Below, piece after piece: positions 580-60,760 of a DNA stretch of 64,000 nt (position 1 is its first letter; the number at the start of each line of letters is the position of its first letter). The DNA is from Enterobacteria phage GiZh. The DNA lies in the sequence record NC_054903.1. One strand, given 5' to 3'. A model generated the notes under the pieces. The model was not told the DNA's origin. It made no database searches and saw only the letters and a list, made by a program, of their open reading frames with translations. The position numbers and the translations under genes were made by a program.

Positions 580-1674
580 ATGGCAATTGTTAAAGAAATA
601 ACTGCTGATTTAATTAAAAAGTCCGGTGAGAAAATTTCAGCCGGGCAGAGTACTAAATCAGAAGTAGGAACTAAAACATACACAGCCCAGTTTCCAACTG
701 GGCGTGCTAGTGGTAATGACACTACAGGGGACTTCCAGGTAACAGATCTATATAAGAATGGATTATTATTTACTGCATACAATATGTCATCTAGGGATTC
801 TGGAAGTCTTAGATCGATGAGATCTAACTACTCTTCTTCATCTTCGAGTATTTTACGTACAGCTAGAAACACTATTAGTAGTACAGTATCAAAACTATCA
901 AATGGATTAATATCAAATAATAATTCAGGAACAATAAGTAAAGCTCCTATCGCAAACATTCTTTTACCGAGATCTAAATCTGATGTTGATACATCATCAC
1001 ATAGATTTAATGATGTTCAAGAAAGCCTTATCAGTAGAGGCGGAGGTACTGCTACTGGAGTGCTAAGTAATATTGCTTCAACCGCAGTATTTGGGGCGTT
1101 GGAAAGTATAACACAAGGTATAATGGCTGATAATAATGAACAGATTTATACGACAGCCAGAAGTATGTATGGCGGTGCTGAAAATAGAACTAAAGTGTTT
1201 ACATGGGATTTGACTCCACGTTCAACAGAAGATTTAATGGCTATTATTAATATCTATCAATATTTTAACTATTTTTCTTATGGTGAAACAGGTAAATCTC
1301 AATATGCTGCTGAAATAAAGGGGTATTTAGATGATTGGTATCGTTCTACGTTAATTGAACCTTTATCTCCAGAAGACGCAGCTAAAAATAAAACACTATT
1401 TGAGAAAATGACATCGAGCTTAACTAACGTTCTAGTAGTTTCAAATCCGACAGTTTGGATGGTGAAAAACTTTGGTGCAACATCTAAGTTTGATGGAAAA
1501 ACGGAAATATTTGGTCCATGTCAAATACAGAGCATCAGATTTGATAAAACACCTAATGGTAACTTTAACGGATTAGCTATTGCTCCAAACCTCCCTAGTA
1601 CATTTACTCTCGAGATTACTATGAGAGAAATTATCACGTTAAACCGTGCTTCTTTATATGCGGGGACTTTTTAA
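580..1674 (+). CDS. 48: Baseplate-tail tube junction protein gp48
   Basis: 364 aa, same length as T4 gp48; position between 29 and 54; AGGA-type RBS before ATG. Confidence 0.8.
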   Translation: MAIVKEITADLIKKSGEKISAGQSTKSEVGTKTYTAQFPTGRASGNDTTGDFQVTDLYKNGLLFTAYNMSSRDSGSLRSMRSNYSSSSSSILRTARNTISSTVSKLSNGLISNNNSGTISKAPIANILLPRSKSDVDTSSHRFNDVQESLISRGGGTATGVLSNIASTAVFGALESITQGIMADNNEQIYTTARSMYGGAENRTKVFTWDLTPRSTEDLMAIINIYQYFNYFSYGETGKSQYAAEIKGYLDDWYRSTLIEPLSPEDAAKNKTLFEKMTSSLTNVLVVSNPTVWMVKNFGATSKFDGKTEIFGPCQIQSIRFDKTPNGNFNGLAIAPNLPSTFTLEITMREIITLNRASLYAGTF

Positions 1675-2639
1675 TGTATTCTTTAGAGGAATTTAATAAT
1701 CAAGCAATAAACGCAGATTTCCAACGTAATAATATGTTTAGCTGCGTTTTTGCAACAACTCCATCAACTAAAAGCTCTTCGTTGATAAGTTCAATTAGCA
1801 ACTTTTCTTATAATAACTTGGGCCTAAATTCAGATTGGTTAGGATTAACTCAAGGTGATATTAATCAGGGAATTACTACGCTAATTACAGCTGGCACACA
1901 AAAACTGATAAGAAAATCAGGGGTTAGTAAATATCTTATTGGTGCTATGAGTCAGCGTACTGTCCAGAGTTTATTAGGCTCATTTACAGTTGGTACATAT
2001 TTAATTGACTTCTTTAACATGGCATATAACTCATCTGGATTGATGATATACTCTGTAAAAATGCCAGAGAATAGATTATCTTATGAAACTGACTGGAACT
2101 ATAATTCTCCTAATATTCGTATAACCGGAAGAGAATTAGACCCTTTGGTTATTTCATTTAGAATGGATTCAGAAGCTTGTAACTATCGTGCAATGCAAGA
2201 CTGGGTTAACTCTGTTCAAGACCCAGTAACTGGATTGCGTGCTTTGCCACAAGATGTCGAGGCAGATATTCAGGTTAATCTTCATGCTCGTAATGGATTA
2301 CCTCATACTGCGGTGATGTTCACCGGATGCATTCCAGTGTCAGTGAGCGCTCCTGAGTTATCATATGATGGAGATAACCAAATAACTACATTTGATGTTA
2401 CTTTTGCGTATAGAGTCATGCAGGCTGGGTCGGTTGATAGACAAGCTGCGCTTGAGTGGCTTGAATCTGCTGCTATAAATGGCATTCAAAGTGTTCTCGG
2501 AAATAGTGGAGGTGTTACTGGATTATCTAATTCGCTTTCACGACTTAGTAGATTAGGAGGAACTGCGGGGAGCATTTCAAACATTAATACTATGACAGGA
2601 ATTGTCAATTCGCAAAGTAAAATATTAGGAGCAATATAA
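1674..2639 (+). CDS. 54: Baseplate tail tube initiator gp54
   Basis: 321 aa (T4 gp54 about 320 aa); start overlaps gp48 stop (TAATG); followed by hairpin terminator. Confidence 0.8.
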   Translation: MYSLEEFNNQAINADFQRNNMFSCVFATTPSTKSSSLISSISNFSYNNLGLNSDWLGLTQGDINQGITTLITAGTQKLIRKSGVSKYLIGAMSQRTVQSLLGSFTVGTYLIDFFNMAYNSSGLMIYSVKMPENRLSYETDWNYNSPNIRITGRELDPLVISFRMDSEACNYRAMQDWVNSVQDPVTGLRALPQDVEADIQVNLHARNGLPHTAVMFTGCIPVSVSAPELSYDGDNQITTFDVTFAYRVMQAGSVDRQAALEWLESAAINGIQSVLGNSGGVTGLSNSLSRLSRLGGTAGSISNINTMTGIVNSQSKILGAI

Positions 2640-2643
2640 CAAT

Positions 2644-2661
2644 GGGGACCTTTCGGTCCCC
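2644..2661 (+). terminator. Stem-loop ggggacc-tttc-ggtcccc followed by T-rich run, after gene 54
   Basis: Perfect 7-bp GC-rich inverted repeat then ATGTTTTTATTT; sits between convergent gene 54 and the 96-aa minus-strand ORF. Confidence 0.6.
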
Positions 2662-2667
2662 ATGTTT

Positions 2668-2958
2668 TTATTTACGGAATGAAATAAAAGCAGCAACTGA
2701 AGCAACTAAACTGTCTTCAATATAAACTTCAATTTTTACCGGAGCTTCTGACTCAAATTTACCTGTTACTACACCTTGGAAAATACTTTCAGTTTGTTCT
2801 GGCTTTGAAAAATTTTCAGAAGGAAAAATTCCGAACTTTTTATCTGTTCCAAAAATTTTAATAAATTCATCGTAAACTGCTTCATTAAAAGCATTATCAG
2901 CAGGAATAACGCCTTCAACTACAAGTTCTTGACCTAAAAAGCGCAAAGAAGATTTCAT
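2668..2958 (-). CDS. Hypothetical protein (96 aa), downstream of alt
   Basis: ORF with early-type promoter and GAGGA RBS upstream; no recognisable motif. Confidence 0.5.
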   Translation of the reverse strand: MKSSLRFLGQELVVEGVIPADNAFNEAVYDEFIKIFGTDKKFGIFPSENFSKPEQTESIFQGVVTGKFESEAPVKIEVYIEDSLVASVAAFISFRK

Positions 2959-2984
2959 TTTGTGTTCCTCATGTTATGTCAGTA

Positions 2985-3020
2985 AGATTACTATAACACA
3001 ACACGAGGGACTTGTAAACT
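2985..3020 (-). promoter_or_regulatory. T4 early-type promoter (-35 TTTACA, 17-bp spacer, -10 TATAGT on minus strand)
   Basis: Plus-strand tgtaaa at 3013-3018 and actata at 2990-2995; part of a 54-bp cassette nearly identical to 18248..18301. Confidence 0.5.
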
Positions 3021-5076
3021 ACATTTTGAACTTTTTAGACATTCCGTTAATGTTAACCAAAGAAGCTAAGATTTGAGAAACTTCGTTTTCCTCTTCTTTT
3101 GATTCTTCTACAAGGAATTGATTAAATCCAGCCATTGGACGAACTTCACCAGTTTCCATTAAATGGTCGCCATCATATACTGATTCTTCTAATTGTTCAG
3201 AAGGAGGAACGATTGTACCTTCGATTAGATACTTATTATAAGCAGTTTCTTTCATAAAGTACGTACTTACTTTATTAATCTTCAGTAAAATTCCACGTGG
3301 TAGAATAACTTCAGCTTCTGATGGAAATCCTGATAAATGACCTGGAACGATAACTTTGATTCGCTCAGCTCCTTTAATTACCATACCCACGCTAGTTTCA
3401 GCATCTTCATTAGCATATGTAGAATGACTACCCATATACATCAAATCTTCAGCATCAACAGAACCTTCTCCTTCACCAGAAAATACTGCGCCGGAATCAT
3501 CTAGAGCCATATAGTTTTTACCATGCTCACCGAAGATATTTGGTTTAAGCGATGTTGATACGAAGTTCTTGAAATAGAACATTTTATTTTCAATATTATG
3601 ACGTAAAGTTTTAAAGGTAACTTCTTGTCCACGGTAAAGTGTAGTTCCCGGAGGAAGAACTGATCCTTTGGCGAATGCAGAATCCAGCGTCTCGATGTGT
3701 TTAATAGCTCGTTCCATGTATTCTTCACGGGTAGAATCTGGTTTACCTAAAAGGAACGAGTTCATTTCAACATATGAATCTGCACAATAATCTTCAATTA
3801 CATCAGACTCAGCCTGAGTTAATCCTTTTGGAGTTACTTCAGTACTTGCATATTCATATGCCTGGGCAGCAGATTCATTAATCAATTTATAAATGCCATT
3901 CATGACAAATTGAATAATAGCTGTCTTTTCATCTGGTGTGGCTTTAGAACCTTTAACTAAATCATTGATAATTTTCTTAATAACATCAAAGCTATTAGAA
4001 ATATTAATATCAGCAAGATCGCTTAAAATTTTATCAGTTTTATAATCAAAGAATTCTTTATTCTTTAAATATTCTTGAGAACCTTGATATGTTATATCGC
4101 TCTGCAACTTGATGGATGGATCACGTAAACGTGCATGGGCTAATGCAATATGATTTCGGAAGTTTTCTAGTTCATAATCGCTAGATTTAAAACGAGAAGC
4201 ACTTCTCATACCACCGATAGCTCCTTTGCTGAAGTTTGAACCAATCTGAATAACGCCAGAGTTCATTGGTCCTTCTGCTTTATATACCGGAACTTTAGAT
4301 TCAAACTCTTGATATTTCTTGGCAGCGAAGCTATCACCCTGAAGTGAAGCATCGACAGTAGAATATTGAGCTTGTGCTGCTAATCGACGACTAATTTTAG
4401 TTTTCTGAATAACAGCTTGATCCGTGCGCTTATCATTTTCTAAGGCAATAGAAGCAGCAACAGCAACAGCTTTAGGAACAGCATTACCTGTTTTAACATC
4501 CACATAAACATCACCAACCTTTGATTCAACTTTTGTGAATAACTCAGTTGAAATAGGAGGTACACCTGGAATGTCTTCTAAATTGGCATTTTTACGGTAA
4601 ACCATAATATATGCATACTTTTTATCATAATCCCAGATTTCCTTTAAAAGAACATATCGACCTGCTCCTTTAGTACGTACTAAACGGTCAGCAATAACTT
4701 GCATTTGACGAGCTGCGCCATTTGTTTTACTTTTTAGTACGCGGAATAAGCATGCATCAATTTTATACTGTTTCATTGTTTGAAGAGCAGTATCAAAAAC
4801 GGCATTAATGACACCAATTGGATTTCCACCTAAGTTTTTAAGTTTAACTAATGATAGTTTCTCATTGACACCTATCATTACGATATGCATCATTTTATCG
4901 CCTGGCTTAACGTTTTTATTTGTATCACCACCAGAGGTGTATGTACAAAATCTAAATCCAGGAAGCACACTTTCTTCGCCGGCTTGAATAGCAAAAATTT
5001 GAGGTATTTTATGCTTAGGATTTAAGTTAACAACCGGCGCCGAAGCGCCGTCAAATAATTCTGTAATAAGTTCCAT
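3019..5076 (-). CDS. alt: Alt-like ADP-ribosyltransferase, paralogue A (685 aa)
   Basis: Length close to T4 Alt (682 aa); R-S-E ART motifs (YRGQ, FVSTSL, EAEVILPRG); position between 54 and DNA ligase. Confidence 0.8.
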   Translation of the reverse strand: MELITELFDGASAPVVNLNPKHKIPQIFAIQAGEESVLPGFRFCTYTSGGDTNKNVKPGDKMMHIVMIGVNEKLSLVKLKNLGGNPIGVINAVFDTALQTMKQYKIDACLFRVLKSKTNGAARQMQVIADRLVRTKGAGRYVLLKEIWDYDKKYAYIMVYRKNANLEDIPGVPPISTELFTKVESKVGDVYVDVKTGNAVPKAVAVAASIALENDKRTDQAVIQKTKISRRLAAQAQYSTVDASLQGDSFAAKKYQEFESKVPVYKAEGPMNSGVIQIGSNFSKGAIGGMRSASRFKSSDYELENFRNHIALAHARLRDPSIKLQSDITYQGSQEYLKNKEFFDYKTDKILSDLADINISNSFDVIKKIINDLVKGSKATPDEKTAIIQFVMNGIYKLINESAAQAYEYASTEVTPKGLTQAESDVIEDYCADSYVEMNSFLLGKPDSTREEYMERAIKHIETLDSAFAKGSVLPPGTTLYRGQEVTFKTLRHNIENKMFYFKNFVSTSLKPNIFGEHGKNYMALDDSGAVFSGEGEGSVDAEDLMYMGSHSTYANEDAETSVGMVIKGAERIKVIVPGHLSGFPSEAEVILPRGILLKINKVSTYFMKETAYNKYLIEGTIVPPSEQLEESVYDGDHLMETGEVRPMAGFNQFLVEESKEEENEVSQILASLVNINGMSKKFKM

Positions 5077-52001: not shown

Positions 52002-53806
52002 TCTTTACGAAGGTCAGCATTATCTCCCATGAGCATTTCAAAAAGCTCTTTCCAATTCTCAGGAAGTTTAACAACATCATATACTGGATTTTGAATCATC
52101 TCACGATATTCAGATTTTTCCAAAGAGCCAAGTCCCTTAATATAACGGATGCTATGTTTAGGTAGAGCATCTTTGGCACTCTCATATTCAGCGACTGTAT
52201 AAAACCATTCTTGTTTTTTACCGACCTGAGCGATGATTACAGGAGTTTTGACAAAGCGAATTCGTCCTTGCTCAAACAATTCTGGCCAATTACTAAAAAA
52301 TCCGAGCAGAGAAGGATAAATGCTTCCTAGACCATCATGGTCAGCATCAGTCATAATAGCAATATTGCGATAATTCAAGTTTTCAGCTTTTTCACCAAGA
52401 ACTAGACCAGTGATTGCGCAAATATCAAATAGTTCTTTGTTTTTAAGCATATCGGCATATGACATACCCCAGCTATTAAGAACTTTACCGCGCAATGGAT
52501 AACCACCATGAAGTTCTTTATCGCGAACATCAATAAGATATCCGATAGCTGAATCACCCTCAGTCAAGAACAATGTAGTGTCAGCATCTTTACCGCAAAG
52601 ATTCGCTTTAATATGTTTATGAACCTTAGCTTTAGAAGCCTTTTTAGCTGCTTTAGTTTCTGCTGCTTTTTCTGCCGCCAATTTACGAGCCAAAGCAGCT
52701 TCAATAATCGGCATCAGAATTGCTTCATTATTTAGAATAGCGCGTGAAATCTTTTTAGCGTCAAGTTGAATATGACTACGAATTTCGCCAAATGGAGAAG
52801 TCAAACGCTCTTTAGTTTGAGAATCAAATCGCATGTTTTTCATATCACGAACAAACATAACGATAGTCAAACATTCTTTAACGCGTGCTTTAGTTACATC
52901 AATTTTGAACTTACGTTTGATTTGTGGAATAAGGTCTTCACAAATATCATCCATAACACAGTCAATGTGATGGCCACCATTCTTAGTATGAATGTTATTG
53001 ACGTATGTTAATTGACGAAAACCATCCGGTGAACGACCAACCGCAATAGAACAATTTTCTTGTTCTTGAACGATAGCATGTTCATCATATTGGCGTGCGT
53101 ATTTCTTAAAATTACCCTGAACCTTTTTACCATTAAAGGTAAATTGAATATCAGGATAAACAACAGCAAGTGTTTGGAGACGATCTAGTGTAATGTCAAG
53201 ATAAACTTGGGACAGCTCATTAGTTTCAAATGACATAAAATCAGGAATGAAAGTAACACGGGTTCCTTTCCATTTTCCAGGAATATCTTCCCATGATTTA
53301 TTTTCCATGCCGTTTGAACAACGAACTACAATATTATTTTGACCATCACCAGTTTCACCGACAAACATCACAGAAAAAATGTTTGTCAAACTAGAACCAA
53401 CACCATTCATACCACCGGTGACGCGTTCTTTATCATCACCGAAGTTACCACCTGCTTTTGGAATAGTCCACGCAGCAACAGGACCAGGAATTTCTTCACC
53501 GGTAGGTGTTTTAACCATCGCCTGTGGAATACCACGACCGTTATCTTCAACTGTTACTTGATTATTTTTAATAGTAACATTAATTTTATTCGCGAATTTA
53601 AACTTAGTACGAATACCTTCATCTACTGAGTTATCGATAATTTCATCAATAAGCTTAACAAGACCAGGTACATACTGAACACTTTCCCATTTACCAAACA
53701 GAAAGCGCTCATGCATTTCATTAGCTGAAGAGCCAATGTACATGCCGCTACGCTTTTTGATATGTTCAATATCGCTCAGAATTTTAATTTCATTCTTAAT
53801 CATCAC
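51986..53806 (-). CDS. 39: DNA topoisomerase II large subunit, unsplit gene 39 (ATPase plus Toprim)
   Basis: 606 aa; GHKL ATPase motifs (EDNGRGIP, GGMNGVGSS) and complete Toprim (LFLTEGDSA ... IMTDADHDG) in one ORF; C-terminal part corresponds to T4 gp60. Confidence 0.9.
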   Translation of the reverse strand: MMIKNEIKILSDIEHIKKRSGMYIGSSANEMHERFLFGKWESVQYVPGLVKLIDEIIDNSVDEGIRTKFKFANKINVTIKNNQVTVEDNGRGIPQAMVKTPTGEEIPGPVAAWTIPKAGGNFGDDKERVTGGMNGVGSSLTNIFSVMFVGETGDGQNNIVVRCSNGMENKSWEDIPGKWKGTRVTFIPDFMSFETNELSQVYLDITLDRLQTLAVVYPDIQFTFNGKKVQGNFKKYARQYDEHAIVQEQENCSIAVGRSPDGFRQLTYVNNIHTKNGGHHIDCVMDDICEDLIPQIKRKFKIDVTKARVKECLTIVMFVRDMKNMRFDSQTKERLTSPFGEIRSHIQLDAKKISRAILNNEAILMPIIEAALARKLAAEKAAETKAAKKASKAKVHKHIKANLCGKDADTTLFLTEGDSAIGYLIDVRDKELHGGYPLRGKVLNSWGMSYADMLKNKELFDICAITGLVLGEKAENLNYRNIAIMTDADHDGLGSIYPSLLGFFSNWPELFEQGRIRFVKTPVIIAQVGKKQEWFYTVAEYESAKDALPKHSIRYIKGLGSLEKSEYREMIQNPVYDVVKLPENWKELFEMLMGDNADLRKEWMSQ

Positions 53807-53855
53807 TTATCCTCGTTTGGTTTCGGGAATATTATACTCCGGTAATCATAAAGCT

Positions 53856-53873
53856 AAAGGCCCGAAGGCCTTT
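53856..53873. other. Hairpin aaaggcc-cgaa-ggccttt (second copy)
   Basis: Identical to hairpin at 7210..7227; between lipoprotein ORF stop and gene 39 start. Confidence 0.5.
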
Positions 53874-54142
53874 TATTTAAAACGAATAGTTGAATCCTTA
53901 AAGAACAGCCCAGAACATACTGTTCCTTCTACTTTCTGCCCGGTAGGTCCAATAGCACGAAATCCAGTATGTTGGAAATCATTTTCAGAACAACCGAACC
54001 AGTTATATCCAGTGATTTCAATATTAGTAAAACCGCTTGAAGATAAAACTTTGGTTGCATTATCAGCATCAGTACATCCTACTAAAGACACTGTTAATAC
54101 TAATGCTGCAATAGAACGATTAATATATTTCATAATTTTCAC
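53873..54142 (-). CDS. Predicted lipoprotein (89 aa)
   Basis: Signal peptide with lipobox SLVGC (MKIMKYINRSIAALVLTVSLVGC). Confidence 0.55.
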   Translation of the reverse strand: MKIMKYINRSIAALVLTVSLVGCTDADNATKVLSSSGFTNIEITGYNWFGCSENDFQHTGFRAIGPTGQKVEGTVCSGLFFKDSTIRFK

Positions 54143-54510
54143 TTAAATTTAATGGCTTGAAGAAGACTAATAATTCTCAAGCGACTTCTTTCATCTTTAA
54201 CTGTAAAAGAAAGAGGGTCACCAGATTTCATAGTAATAGTACATTCAAAATCAAAATCTTCGGAAACTTCTTTGAAGAAGTCAAATTCTTCATCATAAAT
54301 TAGAACATTACTCTGACAACTATGAAGAATTTTTCCATCATTTCCAGATGCTGTACTAATCATTGTAACATTATGACCTTTCATATCTTCAATGATAAAT
54401 TCACTAGTCAATATTACAGCATTAATAGAACTATTCCTATTACTAGCAGAAAGTAGATATTTCTGTTCTTCACCTTCACGAATGCAATATTTCTTACCGA
54501 TTTTAAACAT
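54139..54510 (-). CDS. Hypothetical protein (123 aa)
   Basis: ORF upstream of the lipoprotein gene. Confidence 0.5.
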   Translation of the reverse strand: MFKIGKKYCIREGEEQKYLLSASNRNSSINAVILTSEFIIEDMKGHNVTMISTASGNDGKILHSCQSNVLIYDEEFDFFKEVSEDFDFECTITMKSGDPLSFTVKDERSRLRIISLLQAIKFK

Positions 54511-54512
54511 AA

Positions 54513-54689
54513 TTATCCTTTAAGTAAGTCGTAAAATCCGCCATTCACATGCTTAGGAGCAGAAGGCCGACGAGTAGACAAACGATGACATTTAGGGCAA
54601 ACATCATTTTCTCGTTCAGAAATCTTTTTAATTTTTTCATATTCATGCCCGCAATCTTCGGATTGGCATTTATAATCATACATTGGCAT
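54513..54689 (-). CDS. FmdB-like zinc-ribbon protein (58 aa)
   Basis: Unlisted ORF MPMYDYKCQSEDCGHEYEKIKKISERENDVCPKCHRLS...; CxxC...CxxC zinc ribbon with MPxYxYxC start. Confidence 0.45.
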   Translation of the reverse strand: MPMYDYKCQSEDCGHEYEKIKKISERENDVCPKCHRLSTRRPSAPKHVNGGFYDLLKG

Positions 54690-54691
54690 AA

Positions 54692-55117
54692 TTATTCCTT
54701 AAAGTGTGCTTTCAGCATTTGATACAAGGACCATGCCTGTTCATTATTTTCAATAGTAACTTTCATGACAGGAAATTCTGTGAAATCTTCTATTTGTTCT
54801 TGCTCTTTCTCTTCCTGCTCTTGCTCTTCAGCTGCCTGATATGGATTTTCCACTTCATCAAAGAACTCGGCTTCGTTAGTAGAGAGCCAGATAAAGTTTT
54901 CGTCAAGGATATCACCATGTGTTGCATATCCAATTGTGCCAGTAAATGACATAATTTTAGTAGGACGACCAAGATGGTCAACATCTAAAATTTTAAAAGG
55001 ATGCATACCTAAACGGCGTGCATAGATTCCGTTATCAGTATGATCTTTAATAAAATTTTCTTGAGCTTGTTTATTTTTAAATTGATACCATTTATTAACT
55101 TCAAATCTAATAGCCAT
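54692..55117 (-). CDS. Hypothetical acidic protein (141 aa), possibly goF
   Basis: Glu/Gln-rich central tract ([16 protein letters not shown]); T4 goF assignment is by position and recalled size only. Confidence 0.45.
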
Positions 55118-55332
55118 TAATAAATTTCCTTCCAGTAAGTTGTGCCATCTTCAGTAATTTCACGAAATACACCGTAAATTGGTTGTTTATCACCAACCTT
55201 TTCATACACATAAACCGAAGTCAAGTGAGTAAACTTAACGGTATGTTCCTTTTGAACCACTACCAAATCTGGATCAAATAATACATCTTCAAATTCGTCA
55301 TTAGTGCAATTCTGAACAATTTTACGTTTCAT
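55117..55332 (-). CDS. Hypothetical protein (71 aa), possibly cef
   Basis: Size and position suggest T4 cef; not verified. Confidence 0.4.
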
Positions 55333-55345
55333 TACAATTTCCTCA

Positions 55346-55615
55346 TTAATTAAACATTGGAGCGATACGTTTCAGAAGAGTAGCAGCACCTTTAGCGAAT
55401 TTTACATCATGAAAAACAGTTTCTTCTTCTGTAACAACTCGAACTTTAATATTTTCACAATCCCAATTTTTACGAACAATCTTCAAAAGCTGCAGTAAAT
55501 CTTTACATTCAGCAATATCGATAACACATCCACGAGAATCTTCCATTATCGCACGATAACCGTAAGCCATACCATAATCATTAAAAGATTGCTCGATGAT
55601 AATTAAGTTTTCCAT
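55346..55615 (-). CDS. Hypothetical protein (about 89 aa from MENLIIIEQ)
   Basis: Listed 108-aa ORF reads into the promoter cassette; internal Met likely start. Confidence 0.45.
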   Translation of the reverse strand: MENLIIIEQSFNDYGMAYGYRAIMEDSRGCVIDIAECKDLLQLLKIVRKNWDCENIKVRVVTEEETVFHDVKFAKGAATLLKRIAPMFN

Positions 55616-55725
55616 TTTATTCTCCAAGTTTTTCTGTATCAGTAGTTGATATTGATATAGTACCATAATCAACTACTGATGTATATAGTTTTATGAAAAA
55701 AAAAAAATTTAAACTTTATGCAAAT

Positions 55726-56145
55726 TTATGCTAAAGCTGCTTCGCACCATTTTTTAATTTGGAATTCAGGAACTACCATGAACTGGCCTGCAAAAACAAT
55801 ATTGTAGAGCTTGACACCATCTTCTACCCAACGGTCCGAAATAAAACCAGCGACTTGATTCGTTGTCCATGGAGTTCCATCTGTTGCCGCCGCAATTGTG
55901 AATTTATGGTCTTTTACAACTAAAACTGAAGAACAAAGTTTCCATTTAAATGCGCGTTCTTCTGGCTCAATGAACTGACTTGAGACATAACCAATGTTAC
56001 CATCAGCGTCACGAACTTTAACCTCGTTACGACCAAAAACTGGATCACTTACAGAAAGAACTTCAACCAGCTTTCCTGCAACTTTAGAACGAGAAGCAAC
56101 GGATACATATACGTAATCACCAGTAGAGAGATTTACAATATTCAT
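55726..56145 (-). CDS. Paralogue family member 1 (139 aa)
   Basis: Shares N-terminal SVASRSKVAGKLVEV and C-terminal WVEDGVKLYNIVFAGQFMVVPE with the next two ORFs. Confidence 0.55.
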   Translation of the reverse strand: MNIVNLSTGDYVYVSVASRSKVAGKLVEVLSVSDPVFGRNEVKVRDADGNIGYVSSQFIEPEERAFKWKLCSSVLVVKDHKFTIAAATDGTPWTTNQVAGFISDRWVEDGVKLYNIVFAGQFMVVPEFQIKKWCEAALA

Positions 56146-56154
56146 AATAATTCC

Positions 56155-56673
56155 TTAAGCTTTACGAGGAGAAGCATAACGAGTGATTTCAGATTCTTCA
56201 ACAACCCGGAAGTCACCTAAGAATACGATATTGTAGAGCTTTTCACCATCTTCAACCCATTGGTCTGTGATGAAGCCACACATCCTATCAGTTTTACTTG
56301 GACCAGCGAAATCATCAATATAATCGAATTCTTCATCAGTTACAAATTCAACGCCTTTACACAACGCCCATTTAAATTGTGTATTAGACTCAGTGGATTC
56401 AACTTCTTCAACAGAAGCAAAATGAGAGCTAACACGAGTTTCCAGAAATTTAGGACTTACGTAAGCGTACTGAGTTTCAGTTTTTCCAGAACTAGGAATG
56501 ATTCGAACTTTAACTTCTTTAACACGACCAGTACCATTAGTACGAAGTCCTACCACTTCAACTAGACGACCTGCAGCTTTAGAACGAGATGCAGACGATA
56601 CACGCTTAATTTCACCGATAGTAATCATAATTTTTCTCTCTTTGTTGTTAAGATTTATACTCCGCAGGACCAT
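56155..56673 (-). CDS. Paralogue family member 2 (172 aa), possibly MotB-like
   Basis: SSASRSKAAGRLVEV ... QWVEDGEKLYNIVFLGDFRVVEE; size near T4 MotB but identity unverified. Confidence 0.5.
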   Translation of the reverse strand: MVLRSINLNNKERKIMITIGEIKRVSSASRSKAAGRLVEVVGLRTNGTGRVKEVKVRIIPSSGKTETQYAYVSPKFLETRVSSHFASVEEVESTESNTQFKWALCKGVEFVTDEEFDYIDDFAGPSKTDRMCGFITDQWVEDGEKLYNIVFLGDFRVVEESEITRYASPRKA

Positions 56674-56700
56674 TATACTCTGGTCCCAAGAGTTTGTAAA

Positions 56701-57138
56701 CTAGCTTACACGAACATTAATCACTGCGCTGCGAGGAACTACAGAGTACTCTCCAGCATGAACTACGTTCAGAAGTTCAACACCATCTTCAATCCACTGA
56801 TCAGTCACCCATCCACCCACAGGATTCGCGAATGGACGACGAATATAAACTGCCTTACACAGCAGATCAGTTGGATCTTCAGGTTTTTCAATTTCTGTCA
56901 ATAGACTAAAATCTTTTTCATAAATAATAAGCGGTGATACCATTCCATAATAGTTTCTAATTTCAATATACATCATACCGATAAGAATTCCGCTATTAAC
57001 ACTAATAACAGTAAAAGGATATCCGCCAGTTAAACCAAGAAGTTCACAAAACTTATTATGAGCTGTATTAGACAGTACCGAAAAATTCTTAATTTCATCA
57101 AATTTTTTCAATTGATAAACAGCATTATTTTTAATCAT
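56701..57138 (-). CDS. Paralogue family member 3 (145 aa)
   Basis: C-terminal DQWIEDGVELLNVVHAGEYSVVPRS shared with members 1 and 2; N-terminus divergent. Confidence 0.5.
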   Translation of the reverse strand: MIKNNAVYQLKKFDEIKNFSVLSNTAHNKFCELLGLTGGYPFTVISVNSGILIGMMYIEIRNYYGMVSPLIIYEKDFSLLTEIEKPEDPTDLLCKAVYIRRPFANPVGGWVTDQWIEDGVELLNVVHAGEYSVVPRSAVINVRVS

Positions 57139-57148
57139 AATTTTCTCT

Positions 57149-57652
57149 TTAATCTAAGGTAATAAAGCCTTTTAATTCGGCATGGGATTTACGGAACATT
57201 ACTTGGTGCCCGCCAATGATAACTTGATCATCTGGAACTTCGTATACAGCAAGATAAAATCCTTTAGAAGATAATTCTTCACGCTCTTCTCGTGTGAACC
57301 ATCTCATCATATCATATTCACTAGCAAAAGCAAAATGATAAAGAGCTATAAACCATCCGGGAATATAATGATCTACGCCTACATATTCTTCTTTCTCAAA
57401 GTTAGTATTAATTGCTATATTAGCATTTTTAACTAATAATTTGTCTTCGTGTGGAAGAGGAATTCTTTTATTATCATTACTATGATGCATAAAATTAGGT
57501 CTGTCATAACCTACGTGTAATAACCACTCTTCGCTCCATGAATCTATTATACTCCTGTATGGCGTTATTTGAACACAAAGATCTCGACGTATTGTTATAG
57601 CATCTTCATAATTAAGAATACTAAACGATGATTCAACACGATAAATTTTCAT
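57149..57652 (-). CDS. Hypothetical protein (about 168 aa from MKIYRVESS)
   Basis: Listed 180-aa ORF reads into promoter cassette 57670-57709. Confidence 0.5.
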   Translation of the reverse strand: MKIYRVESSFSILNYEDAITIRRDLCVQITPYRSIIDSWSEEWLLHVGYDRPNFMHHSNDNKRIPLPHEDKLLVKNANIAINTNFEKEEYVGVDHYIPGWFIALYHFAFASEYDMMRWFTREEREELSSKGFYLAVYEVPDDQVIIGGHQVMFRKSHAELKGFITLD

Positions 57653-57715
57653 TTTATTATCCTCAGTAGCTATGGTGTTATAGTACCACAACTAACCGAG
57701 GAAGTAAACAACTTT

Positions 57716-58399
57716 TTATCGTTTTGTTGGAAGAGATAGAGGATCGCAATCTTCCTCTGATGGAGCATCTTCAAGACCCATAGCATATCGCAAAGCATAC
57801 TTCATCATCAGGATGTCTTTCGCACAGTCATGAATAGAATCATGTGCAACGAATCCATCTAAAGTTCCCTTTGGAAGAGGACATGTGGTCATATCACGAA
57901 CAAGCAAAAGTGCTTCAATTCTAGTACGAATATCACGTTGATTCCAGAATTTACATGGTTCTAACTTAAATGTGTCAAGTTCATTCTCGGAAACGCCGTT
58001 AAGACGCTGAATATCGCGAATGAGATCGACTAAAATTGGAAAATCAAACGACATTCCACGGCACCAGCCTTGAGATTTCCAAGGATCGATGTTATGTGCA
58101 TTGATGTAATCATTAAATTTTGCAATACCATCGATAGTGCTTACATCTTCATCTGATGGCGCAATATTTTTTCGAGCTTCAGGAGATTGATTCTTCCACC
58201 ATTCGATAGTGCTTTTAGTAAAAAGACGATGTCCTTTTTGGCTTTTTAAATCAAATTTGATTTTAATGCCACGTGAAACTAATTCATCAAATGTTTCAAC
58301 GACTTCTGGGTTAGGGTCAAAAGCAATTACAGCCAAATCAATAACAGCTGCTTTTTCACCGCTTCCCATTGTTTCAAAATCTATAATAAAATCAAACAT
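57716..58399 (-). CDS. dexA: Exonuclease A (DEDD-family 3'-5' exonuclease)
   Basis: 227 aa as in T4 DexA; Exo motif I DFETMG near N-terminus. Confidence 0.85.
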   Translation of the reverse strand: MFDFIIDFETMGSGEKAAVIDLAVIAFDPNPEVVETFDELVSRGIKIKFDLKSQKGHRLFTKSTIEWWKNQSPEARKNIAPSDEDVSTIDGIAKFNDYINAHNIDPWKSQGWCRGMSFDFPILVDLIRDIQRLNGVSENELDTFKLEPCKFWNQRDIRTRIEALLLVRDMTTCPLPKGTLDGFVAHDSIHDCAKDILMMKYALRYAMGLEDAPSEEDCDPLSLPTKR

Positions 58400-58656
58400 T
58401 AAATTTTCCTCGCTAAATCACGAATTTGACCTACAGTATAGTCTTGAATATAAACTTTATTAATAGGCTCATCAATAAATTTTGCCATAGATTCAATGTC
58501 TTTTTGTATCTCTTCAAGACTGTATACTATCTTTAAAGCTTTTTCGCGAATAGTAACATTATCAGGTCCTGAATTTTCTTGAATGACAGCTTTAACATTT
58601 GCCATAAGAGATTTAAACTGGTACCAACTTAATTCAATCATTAATAATCGCCTCAT
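58399..58656 (-). CDS. Small paralogue A (85 aa)
   Basis: MRRLLMIELSWYQF...LEEIQKDIES; tandem with the next two ORFs. Confidence 0.5.
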   Translation of the reverse strand: MRRLLMIELSWYQFKSLMANVKAVIQENSGPDNVTIREKALKIVYSLEEIQKDIESMAKFIDEPINKVYIQDYTVGQIRDLARKI

Positions 58657-58894
58657 AAAGATAGCTAATTTCGCCTAAAACGTAATCATTGATTGTAACA
58701 GTTTTCACTTCACCACAAAAGAATTCTAACGCAATTAAATCTCGTTCAATTTCTTCTAATTGAAGCATCAACTTACTAGATTCAATTTTTACAGTTTCAC
58801 GATTTTTACCATGAGCAATTTCATAAATTTCGCTAACTTTATCCTGAAGAAGATAAAACTGGTCTTTAGTTATTTCCACGAATAGCTTCCTCAA
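58634..58894 (-). CDS. Small paralogue B (86 aa)
   Basis: MRKLFVEITKDQF...LEEIERDLIA, clearly related to paralogue A; 23-nt overlap. Confidence 0.5.
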   Translation of the reverse strand: MRKLFVEITKDQFYLLQDKVSEIYEIAHGKNRETVKIESSKLMLQLEEIERDLIALEFFCGEVKTVTINDYVLGEISYLYEAIIND

Positions 58895-59126
58895 ATTTAA
58901 TTAGTAATTTACAGACACTTTCATCTAGTGTAATTACCGTATCTGTATTACTGTGATATGATTGTTTTTCAATTCGTTTAATTGCTAATATAGTATCACT
59001 TATAAGATAAAGCTTATGAAGGAGCTCAGCTCCTGTTACCATAACATCGAGATTATCTTGCTTATTAGTATGCTTCCTTATACCATCTATTAGACGATTT
59101 AAATATTTTGAATTGATGTTAATCAT
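58866..59126 (-). CDS. Small paralogue C (86 aa)
   Basis: Same size and arrangement, more divergent sequence; 29-nt overlap with B. Confidence 0.45.
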   Translation of the reverse strand: MININSKYLNRLIDGIRKHTNKQDNLDVMVTGAELLHKLYLISDTILAIKRIEKQSYHSNTDTVITLDESVCKLLIKFEEAIRGNN

Positions 59127-59132
59127 ATAGCC

Positions 59133-60452
59133 TCACACATAAAACACATCATAACGACCACGTGTTACACCAACATAAAGAAGTTGTTGAGCTAATTCAG
59201 CATCTGCATAATGAATACAAGGCGTATAAATGAAAGCACGGTCTACAGACATACCCTGTGCTTTATGGAATGTTGATGCAGGAAGTGCTTTCACTTTACT
59301 AAACTGTGATTTAGCATCCCAAAAATCACTCCATGGAGCTTTTCCGCCTTTGTTCCAATTTTTATAAGTTTCTGCTGTTTTACCTAAAAATAGGTTAAAC
59401 TTATACAATTCTTCATCAGATGAAATTATTTTAATCTTTTCACGATAATATTCATCATCGCCGTAAGTTTCTACTGTTAAATCCCAATGACGAATTAAGT
59501 ATTCTCCTGGAACACCACGAGCTTTAACAAACGTTGATGTATACTCTGCTTCTATAATACGAACTAATTGTCCGTTATTAAAAATAATTTCTGACACAGG
59601 CTTTCCATCAATTTTATATGTTTTAATTAATGGTTCCTGCATTACAATAATTTCACCGACAATAAAATCTTTATCAGTTTCAAAAATCTTTTTACGAATA
59701 ATGCTATTTAACTTGTCAACAGATTTATTCGTAAATGCCATTACGCGATTTTCAAACAAATCATCTAGTGATTTGACGATTGAAAAATAATTTACCATAA
59801 AATCGCGTAAAGCGGTATCACCAGTAAATCCACGTACTCCATGCCCGTCAACAACTTTATCATAAATCCACTTACCGTTGCGAACATCAGTAGCTACATC
59901 AATAATAGGAGCATTACTGCGTTTAACTTCAGTGAGTTCACACTGATAAAAATCTTTATGTGTAAAGAATGGACTGATATAAGCAGTGTTTTCTCCTGGG
60001 TCAACAGGTCTAATTTGCTTATTATCACCTATTCCAATTATAGTACACCACGGCGGGATAGTTGAAAGCAGAATTTTAAATAGCTTTCTATCATACATTG
60101 ACACTTCATCGCAGATTAATACTCTGCATTTAGCTAAATCTGGTACTTCCTTCTGCTCAAAGAGGACATTTTCTTCATATGTTACCGGGTTAATTTTGAG
60201 AATACTGTGAATAGTACTCGCTTCTTTCCCTGATAGTTTTGAAAGAATCTTTTTAGCTGCATGAGTAGGAGCTGCTAAAATAATGCCAGTTTCGCCCGTA
60301 GATATTAAGGCTTCAATGATGAACTTAGTAAGAGTAGTCTTACCAGTACCAGCAGGTCCATTAATAGTTACATGATGTTTCTTTTCTTTAATAGCCCTCA
60401 TAACGATGTTAAAGGCATTTTTCTGGCCTTCTGTCAAATCATCAAATGTCAT
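59133..60452 (-). CDS. dda: Dda DNA helicase (SF1B)
   Basis: 439 aa as in T4 Dda; Walker A GPAGTGKT. Confidence 0.9.
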   Translation of the reverse strand: MTFDDLTEGQKNAFNIVMRAIKEKKHHVTINGPAGTGKTTLTKFIIEALISTGETGIILAAPTHAAKKILSKLSGKEASTIHSILKINPVTYEENVLFEQKEVPDLAKCRVLICDEVSMYDRKLFKILLSTIPPWCTIIGIGDNKQIRPVDPGENTAYISPFFTHKDFYQCELTEVKRSNAPIIDVATDVRNGKWIYDKVVDGHGVRGFTGDTALRDFMVNYFSIVKSLDDLFENRVMAFTNKSVDKLNSIIRKKIFETDKDFIVGEIIVMQEPLIKTYKIDGKPVSEIIFNNGQLVRIIEAEYTSTFVKARGVPGEYLIRHWDLTVETYGDDEYYREKIKIISSDEELYKFNLFLGKTAETYKNWNKGGKAPWSDFWDAKSQFSKVKALPASTFHKAQGMSVDRAFIYTPCIHYADAELAQQLLYVGVTRGRYDVFYV

Positions 60453-60760
60453 CGGAAAGTCCCTGCAATTGGAATACTAACAATACGCCCAGTATCTAGA
60501 ATTCGTTGATATAATCTTTGTGTATCTACATCAGGCTTAACATGTTTAACTTCTATTTTATTAAACCAAAACTTACGTGGAGTCTCAACTAATCTTGGAA
60601 TTCCTTTACCTAAAGCTAGTTTATATTGGTCTTTGAGAGTAGTAAAAACTCTATCAGCAATCTCTCTTTCAAAAAACACAGCAGGACGATGTTCATCAAG
60701 TGGAACTGGCGCCGTAAATCCGTCTTTGTCTCGGTAAACTATCGCATATACATAAACCAT
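60449..60760 (-). CDS. Hypothetical protein (103 aa)
   Basis: ORF overlapping dda start (ATGA); between srd and dda. Confidence 0.5.
   Translation of the reverse strand: MVYVYAIVYRDKDGFTAPVPLDEHRPAVFFEREIADRVFTTLKDQYKLALGKGIPRLVETPRKFWFNKIEVKHVKPDVDTQRLYQRILDTGRIVSIPIAGTFR

Follow-up and report, generated by a model that had tools for sequence, protein, structure and literature searches.

The window, by which we mean the whole 64,000-nucleotide (64-kb) stretch of DNA analysed, is a segment of a T4-like phage genome of about 35% GC, and the genes of the region considered here all lie on its minus strand. By megablast, positions 55300-57800 are 98.3-98.4% identical to the Escherichia phages RB3, RB5, RB27 and JLBYU31 (Tequatrovirus), and the gene order in RB3, read in the direction of transcription, is dexA, motB.2, motB.1, motB, a gene for a MotB-like protein, a gene for a hypothetical protein, and cef. 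A preliminary description of this DNA had listed three adjacent ORFs of 139, 172 and 145 aa, and these were found, consecutive and on the minus strand, at the positions that follow. ORF1 (55726..56145, 139 aa) is a second MotB-like copy, corresponds to RB3_010 (annotated there as a MotB-like transcriptional regulator), and joins a KOW/SH3-like N-terminal domain (NTD) to a C-terminal domain (CTD) that all three proteins share. ORF2 is motB, and ORF3 (56701..57138, 145 aa) is the intact equivalent of the RB3 gene carrying the note 'motB.1', with a different NTD and a diverged form of the shared CTD. Phage T4 has motB.1 and motB and lacks both ORF1 and the small gene that follows it. The ORFs that overlap the region on the plus strand, all short, were rejected as genes, and no Rfam families were found in 53500-60500.

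In the case of ORF2, two minus-strand readings compete, one of 172 aa from ATG 56673 (56155..56673) and one of 157 aa from ATG 56628 (56155..56628). A sigma-70 promoter of the T4 early type (56672..56700, minus strand; GTTTACA and TATAAT separated by 17 nt, 11/12 matches) sits between the motB.1 stop and motB; it is the same, base for base, as the T4 promoter, and its -10 box overlaps ATG 56673. Because the promoter overlaps the upstream ATG, the 157-aa protein is the likelier of the two, and ATG 56628, which has a GAGAG ribosome-binding site, is also the start annotated in RB3, where motB measures 474 nt. The 172-aa ORF of the preliminary description is thus present as an open reading frame, but it is probably an over-extension of the gene by 15 codons. 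Only 9 nt separate the motB stop from the start of ORF1. This gene lacks a separate promoter and is preceded by an AAGGA ribosome-binding site, and in view of the early promoter, the short gap and this site, motB and ORF1 most likely form a single early transcription unit.

The C-terminal block reads SDRWVEDGVKLYNIVFAGQFMVV in ORF1, TDQWVEDGEKLYNIVFLGDFRVV in ORF2 and TDQWIEDGVELLNVVHAGEYSVV in ORF3. The motif TDQWVEDGxKLYNIVFxGxFxVV, which had been ascribed to all three, is exact in ORF2 and nearly exact in ORF1, whereas ORF3 has a diverged variant with I for V, LL for LY and H for F (WIEDGVELLNVVHAGEYSVV). An N-terminal block, SxASRSKxAGxLVEV, said to be common to the first two ORFs, is indeed seen near the N terminus of ORF1 and ORF2, and an HMM of this block matches those two alone in the window. 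BLASTP aligns ORF1 with ORF2 over the full length at 39% identity (E 7e-29), ORF1 with ORF3 at 55% over a 31-aa core (E 2e-11), and ORF2 with ORF3 at E 3e-13. The Pfam model PF17613 ('motB'), for which the gathering cutoff is 25 bits, scores above it with each protein, namely 141.7 bits for ORF2 (E 2.5e-41, end to end), 71.8 bits for ORF1 (E 7.6e-20, both halves) and 32.7 bits for ORF3 (E 8.5e-08, residues 104-139 against model positions 118-153 only). Among the PHROG profiles, number 1671 (MotB-like) matches ORF2 with E 2.4e-68 over profile positions 2-166 and ORF1 with E 1.2e-50, while ORF3 matches PHROG 2333 along its full length (E 9.3e-68) and has a secondary, CTD-only match to PHROG 1671.

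The shared CTD occupies 55729..55962 in ORF1 (aa 62-139; CTD HMM score 114.6), 56158..56388 in ORF2 (the last 77 aa) and 56704..56886 in ORF3 (aa 85-145; score 84.2), all on the minus strand, with the limits in ORF1 and ORF3 taken from an alignment (A2) of 15 diverse CTDs. Eleven columns of that alignment are invariant, and the domain carries the invariant signature D-x-W-x-E-x-G..L-x-N-x-V..G...V. In MotB.1 the CTD is shorter, the hairpin insert of strands 1-2 being absent. Run against the six-frame translation of the window, the CTD HMM found exactly ORF1, ORF2 and ORF3, with no fourth paralogue anywhere in the 64 kb. The shortness of the ORF1-ORF3 alignment, which spans just 31 residues, is the one feature that would suit a chance or compositional likeness of unrelated small ORFs, but with E values from 2e-11 to 7e-29, a curated Pfam model that matches 3/3 proteins, and 11 invariant columns across 15 CTDs, such an explanation has next to no likelihood. 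The three-member paralogue family proposed earlier is therefore real. It had been foreseen at the same time that the motif might prove insignificant or the trio be already annotated with a known fold; the motif is significant, and the trio is indeed largely annotated already, within one Pfam family and PHROGs 1671 and 2333.

The earlier suggestion that one member may be MotB holds for ORF2, which carries the strongest PF17613 match, is motB in RB3, and is 85% identical to RB69 MotB and 46% identical to T4 MotB. T4 MotB (NP_049626, 162 aa; PF17613) has in common with ORF2 the two-domain layout of a KOW-like NTD followed by the CTD, the cef-dexA locus, and the identical early promoter upstream, though its pI is 9.3 compared with 5.4 for ORF2, which is an RB69/Mosigvirus-type allele with an acidic linker and CTD. 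ORF1 shares about 39-46% identity with ORF2 and 37-44% with T4-type MotB; it is an extra copy with no counterpart in T4, distinguished by a linker of 7 aa and by an NTD with next to no net charge. ORF3 is the orthologue of T4 MotB.1 (NP_049627), likewise encoded upstream of motB, and is 78% identical to it over the part kept in T4; the T4 protein stops after 119 aa, whereas ORF3 runs intact to 145 aa and includes the whole C-terminal barrel. We consider it very likely that the trio represents, in identity, architecture and MotB-type function taken jointly, the motB-like, motB and motB.1 early genes of an RB3-like Tequatrovirus. By tblastn, a MotB-family match is present in 772 phage records and an ORF1-type copy of at least 80% identity in 206, Mosigvirus included, and Mosigvirus LF82-7 has the genes arranged as dexA, motB.1 (164 aa), motB, an ORF1-type gene, a motB.2-like gene, and cef.

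The early end of T4 MotB.1 traces to a single nucleotide. The 3' part of T4 motB.1 has one extra G relative to the window (GGATTGGAAGATGG against GGATTGAAGATGG), located within the codons for W-I-E-D-G, and as a result the annotated T4 protein ends in '...TDQWIGRWR' at 119 aa where the window protein has 145 aa. Past the frameshift the T4 DNA is still about 95% identical, and its other frame would encode EDGVELLNVVHAGEYSVVPRSAV. The 119-aa form of MotB.1 belongs to a small cluster with 5 member sequences, and IMG/VR contains 0 exact matches to the frameshifted string and 8 to the intact one. It follows from the frameshift that the published tests of T4 MotB.1 (a 13.8-kDa protein with no phenotype; PMC12152347) used an allele without most of the shared barrel, the mutants concerned having been deletions of the truncated gene (PMC12152347). 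An intact allele, for example that of the window, would be the better choice for functional studies of MotB.1.

The absence of ORF1 from T4, the loss from the ORF1 NTD of the net positive charge seen in MotB, and the fact that T4 tolerates a MotB.1 CTD cut short by a frameshift could be read together as signs of decay, with ORF1 an incipient pseudogene left by duplication and the shared block of ORF3 a functionless remnant. The dN/dS values against Mosigvirus LF82-7 are 0.15 for ORF1 and 0.21 for ORF2; they indicate purifying selection on both genes, and hence that ORF1 is not a decaying duplicate. ORF1 is also found in those 206 phage records, almost all of its near relatives have a length of precisely 139 aa, in clusters down to 83% identity, and it keeps its own ribosome-binding site. 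As for ORF3, the MotB.1-type CTD is the best-conserved part of proteins that have at least four NTD arrangements, and its core is invariant in alignment A2. Taken with these observations, decay of either gene is very improbable.

The NTD of MotB, together with the acidic linker, occupies 56389..56628 on the minus strand, and its core (aa 1-62) has a pI of 10.7 and a net charge of +8; that of ORF1 occupies 55963..56145 (minus strand; NTD HMM score 69.6) and has a net charge of about zero. A feature proper to MotB NTDs, VSxxSRSKxAG, goes with a full-length family match in ORF1 and ORF2, which places these two in category 1 of PMC7827196 (MotB proper); ORF3, of category 2 (MotB.1), matches in the CTD only. 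When the MotB NTD profile was compared with PDB sequences, weak KOW matches were obtained (Spt5, E 4.7e-05; NusG, 0.056; uL24, 0.13), in line with the published KOW assignment (PMC7827196) at the level of sequence profiles. The ORF1 NTD gives a weak match to Pfam SH3_3 (E 0.015), and its AlphaFold2 model has NTD strands at residues 11-14, 26-32, 41-46 and 51-55. The NTD of MotB.1 (56887..57138, minus strand) has no Pfam match; going by work on the T4 orthologue, which has been modelled, it would be LSm-like, a member of the LSm/SH3-like family that includes GoF and Frd.2 and is marked by a bent antiparallel sheet of five strands (Kim 2025, PMC12152347). A GoF-like ORF at 54139-54510 in the window matches the NTD region of the MotB.1 PHROG weakly (E 0.003), which lends slight support to this assignment. 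An internal duplication relating NTD to CTD was rejected, hhalign giving a probability of 0.5% between the two profiles.

The AlphaFold2 model of the CTD alone, built from the last 77 aa of ORF2 with alignment A2, has a mean pLDDT of 92.6 and contains five strands, of which the fourth and fifth are linked by a short helical turn. The ORF1 model (pLDDT 89.1, pTM 0.78) places the CTD strands at residues 73-84, 93-108, 111-118, 121-126 and 130-133. By the criteria used for small barrels, the CTD models class as SH3-like, of the Tudor/KOW type; the best structural matches are SH3-like as well, and none of the cold-shock, eIF5A or SSB-type OB-folds is among the best 60 structural matches of either list. 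In topology, small barrels of the OB and SH3-like kinds lie near each other, and this nearness lends some plausibility to an alternative in which the CTD is an OB-fold of the cold-shock/eIF5A kind, through which all three paralogues would bind DNA or RNA. An OB-fold was in fact the published prediction for the MotB CTD, made with HHpred alongside the KOW assignment of the NTD (PMC7827196), where the CTD matched archaeal eIF5A (1BKB, 2EIF; SCOPe b.40.4.5), and it would suit the tight DNA binding by T4 MotB (PMC6070864, PMC7827196). The predicted CTD models, however, show neither OB topology nor best structural matches to proteins of that fold, and we regard OB-mediated nucleic-acid binding by all three proteins as unlikely. 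The fold of the CTD is predicted to be SH3-like or Tudor-like rather than OB, and the models give no support to the published assignment.

Sequence comparisons place the CTD in no wider superfamily. A PDB sequence search with MotB returned no match, and the CTD profile returned chance matches only (E about 1); with the isolated domains as queries against Pfam, at E values up to 10, the only matches were PF17613 and weak ones to SH3_3 and XtrA. Tudor, chromo and PWWP domains in particular gave no Pfam match to the CTD at E 10 and no match in the PDB profile search, and in a Foldseek search of BFVD the significant matches were family members only. The modelled likeness to Tudor domains would accordingly be one of fold and not of Royal-family membership. 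From other SH3-like small barrels, such as the 53BP1 tandem Tudor, PHF19 Tudor and Spt5/NusG KOW domains, the MotB-type proteins differ in that the tandem arrangement cannot be superposed (no more than 79 of 139 residues align). A comparator with a similar order of domains is eIF5A/EF-P, in which, as in MotB, a KOW/SH3-like barrel stands at the N terminus and another small barrel comes after it (the HHpred analogy of PMC7827196), although that second barrel is an OB-fold in eIF5A/EF-P and is predicted to be SH3-like in MotB.

The range of the CTD was assessed with a profile of the 15 sequences of A2, which HMMER compared with 1.84 billion cluster representatives at E values up to 1e-3. This yielded 33 proteins, of which the traceable ones belong to T4-like phages that infect Escherichia, Shigella, Klebsiella and Pectobacterium or lie on contigs of about 165-175 kb; four long proteins matched the profile through short repeats (E 2e-05 to 7e-04). 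No member outside T4-like phages was present among the traceable matches of this exhaustive HMM search, so the family, going by its traceable members, appears to be restricted to these phages. Most of the distant members combine a KOW-like NTD with the CTD, and in the most distant the NTD motif is a plain KOW (VISGKHAGRTALVIG), which suggests an ancestral layout of KOW plus CTD, from which MotB.1 arose through replacement of the NTD. Other proteins with a MotB.1-type CTD (categories 2-4 of PMC7827196) have the same core as ORF3, DPTDLLC...GWVTDQWIEDGVELLNVVHAG.FSVVPRSAV, though with N-terminal arrangements of about 180 aa and 250 aa that comprise one or two extra modules, and in Klebsiella-phage forms a KOW-like NTD is joined to the MotB.1-type CTD.

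The distribution of charge also differs between the domains and classes. In the MotB class (n=111) the median net charge is +5 for the KOW-like core and -3 for the CTD, and in the window MotB the CTD stands at -7 against the strongly basic core. Both domains are close to neutral in ORF1-type proteins (CTD median -1), and both are acidic in MotB.1-type proteins (CTD median -2). The contrast between a CTD that is acidic or neutral across the classes and the basic NTD of MotB suggests that the NTD binds DNA and that the CTD is an interaction module. Since the CTD is the sole module present in all three proteins and is not obviously DNA-attracting, we propose the NTDs as the nucleic-acid-specific part. 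The T4 MotB CTD is mildly basic (+2), and DNA contact by the CTD is compatible with this charge.

MotB compaction was reportedly treated by Son et al. in NAR in 2021. T4 MotB itself, made early and in abundance, binds DNA tightly and nonspecifically and remodels H-NS-DNA complexes (PMC6070864, PMC7827196). It is toxic to E. coli, it doubles the burst size, it binds unmodified and GHme-C-modified DNA without sequence specificity, and H-NS and StpA co-purify with it (Patterson-West 2018, PMC6070864). It also alters the footprint of H-NS (Patterson-West 2021, PMC7827196) and up-regulates 75 host genes, about one-third of them in the H-NS regulon, and the authors deemed DNA binding possible by either of its domains (PMC7827196). 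In the reading that we favour, ORF2 and likewise ORF1 are two-domain proteins with a KOW-like N-terminal barrel and a C-terminal barrel of about 75 aa, and MotB.1 has at its N terminus a different, probably LSm-like, barrel joined to a shorter copy of the C-terminal one. Transcribed jointly from the T4-type early promoter, motB and ORF1 would be expressed right after infection. By homology with T4 MotB, ORF2 should coat DNA without sequence preference, shift H-NS and StpA on the DNA, de-repress H-NS-silenced genes and raise burst size modestly, and DNA would be bound by its basic KOW-like NTD, just as the LSm-like NTD of MotB.1 might bind RNA. An affinity of ORF2 for DNA equal to that of T4 MotB is not guaranteed, because the two proteins are 46% identical and differ in pI (5.4 versus 9.3), and the functions of ORF1 and MotB.1 we can only infer.

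The surface formed by the invariant D, W, E, G, L, N, V, G and V residues of the CTD could serve self-association, association between paralogues, or the binding of a common partner, and association through the CTD would fit the reported cooperative coating of DNA by MotB. We put forward an interaction role of this kind, whether protein-protein or self-association, as a tentative assignment that may well be wrong. A particular partner is suggested by the Tudor-like modules with which UvrD/PcrA, Mfd and CarD bind RNA polymerase, in which case the paralogues would dock on the host enzyme as genuine modifiers of transcription. Yet UvrD is matched in structure only as well as dozens of unrelated SH3-like barrels are and shows no link in sequence, the co-purifying proteins reported are H-NS and StpA (PMC6070864, PMC7827196), and knock-down of motB has no effect on early or middle T4 RNA and impairs just a few late genes, mildly (PMC6070864), so that docking on RNA polymerase seems quite improbable. 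The broader form of the interaction role, in which the CTD would be a phage-specific Tudor-like docking module that lets early proteins with different NTDs co-assemble or bind a common host target, is a conjecture that we would offer at rather long odds.

The family, the sharing of its CTD and the variation in copy number are already published, and no new family is described here: the CTD was known to be common to MotB and MotB.1 with differing NTDs, homologues had been sorted into four categories, and two motB copies had been noted in some phages, such as RB69 (PMC7827196). The present results are refinements of that picture, consisting of the prediction of an SH3-like rather than an OB fold for the CTD, the argument from charge, the family's restricted range among phages and the frameshift in T4 motB.1.

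The predicted SH3-like CTD and its charge would change which domain should be mutated for separating DNA binding from the other anti-H-NS activities of MotB. If the CTD were indeed a docking module, the missing phenotype of T4 motB.1 would be uninformative, the T4 allele lacking most of the module, and the three proteins of this locus, elsewhere up to four or more, would constitute one modular system that remodels the host nucleoid or RNA metabolism, instead of working independently.

In the window motB.1 is an intact gene of 145 aa, whereas the T4 reference gene is frameshifted by one extra G within its WIEDG codons (NC_000866.4, ~3300-3330, minus strand; equivalent to ~56785-56800 in the window), which cuts MotB.1 to 119 aa, and the remainder of the conserved barrel is still encoded 3' of the extra G in a different frame. 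When exact matches were sought in IMG/VR, the intact motB.1 string was found eight times and the frameshifted string not at all. The truncated allele is the one used in published work on T4 MotB.1 (PMC12152347).

Upstream of motB there is a near-consensus T4 early promoter (GTTTACA-17-TATAAT; 56672-56700, minus strand) in which every base is the same in T4, and the ATG of the over-long 172-aa reading of motB sits inside its -10 box. On the other side of motB, the extra MotB-like copy (ORF1) occurs together with a small gene at 55346-55615 (minus strand; 89 aa by the annotation of the closely related Escherichia phage RB3; phrog_3720), and both are missing from T4; the two look like a single insertion/deletion cassette relative to that phage. 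The spacer of 50-110 nt between the ORF1 stop and the annotated start of the next small gene (~55615) contains a run of ~13 T at ~55695-55712 (minus strand), and no terminator-like hairpin was called at this site. The cluster order in Mosigvirus LF82-7 (1449-3504) is unlike that of the window, running dexA, motB.1 (164 aa), motB, an ORF1-type gene, a motB.2-like gene and cef, so that the motB.2-like gene lies on the opposite side of the motB genes.

Between dexA and dda, three overlapping tandem ORFs of ~85 aa (58399-58656, 58634-58894, and 58866-59126, all minus strand) each match phrog_5263, which suggests a second small paralogue trio; the window has one more ORF of the dexA.1/dexA.2 type than is annotated in T4. 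A 123-aa ORF at 54139-54510 (minus strand), corresponding to RB3_005, is missing from T4. It shares PHROG 622 with GoF (54692-55117) and weakly matches the N-terminal part of the MotB.1 family PHROG 2333 (E 0.003), and it is probably a further member of the GoF/Frd.2/MotB.1 family of LSm-like proteins.
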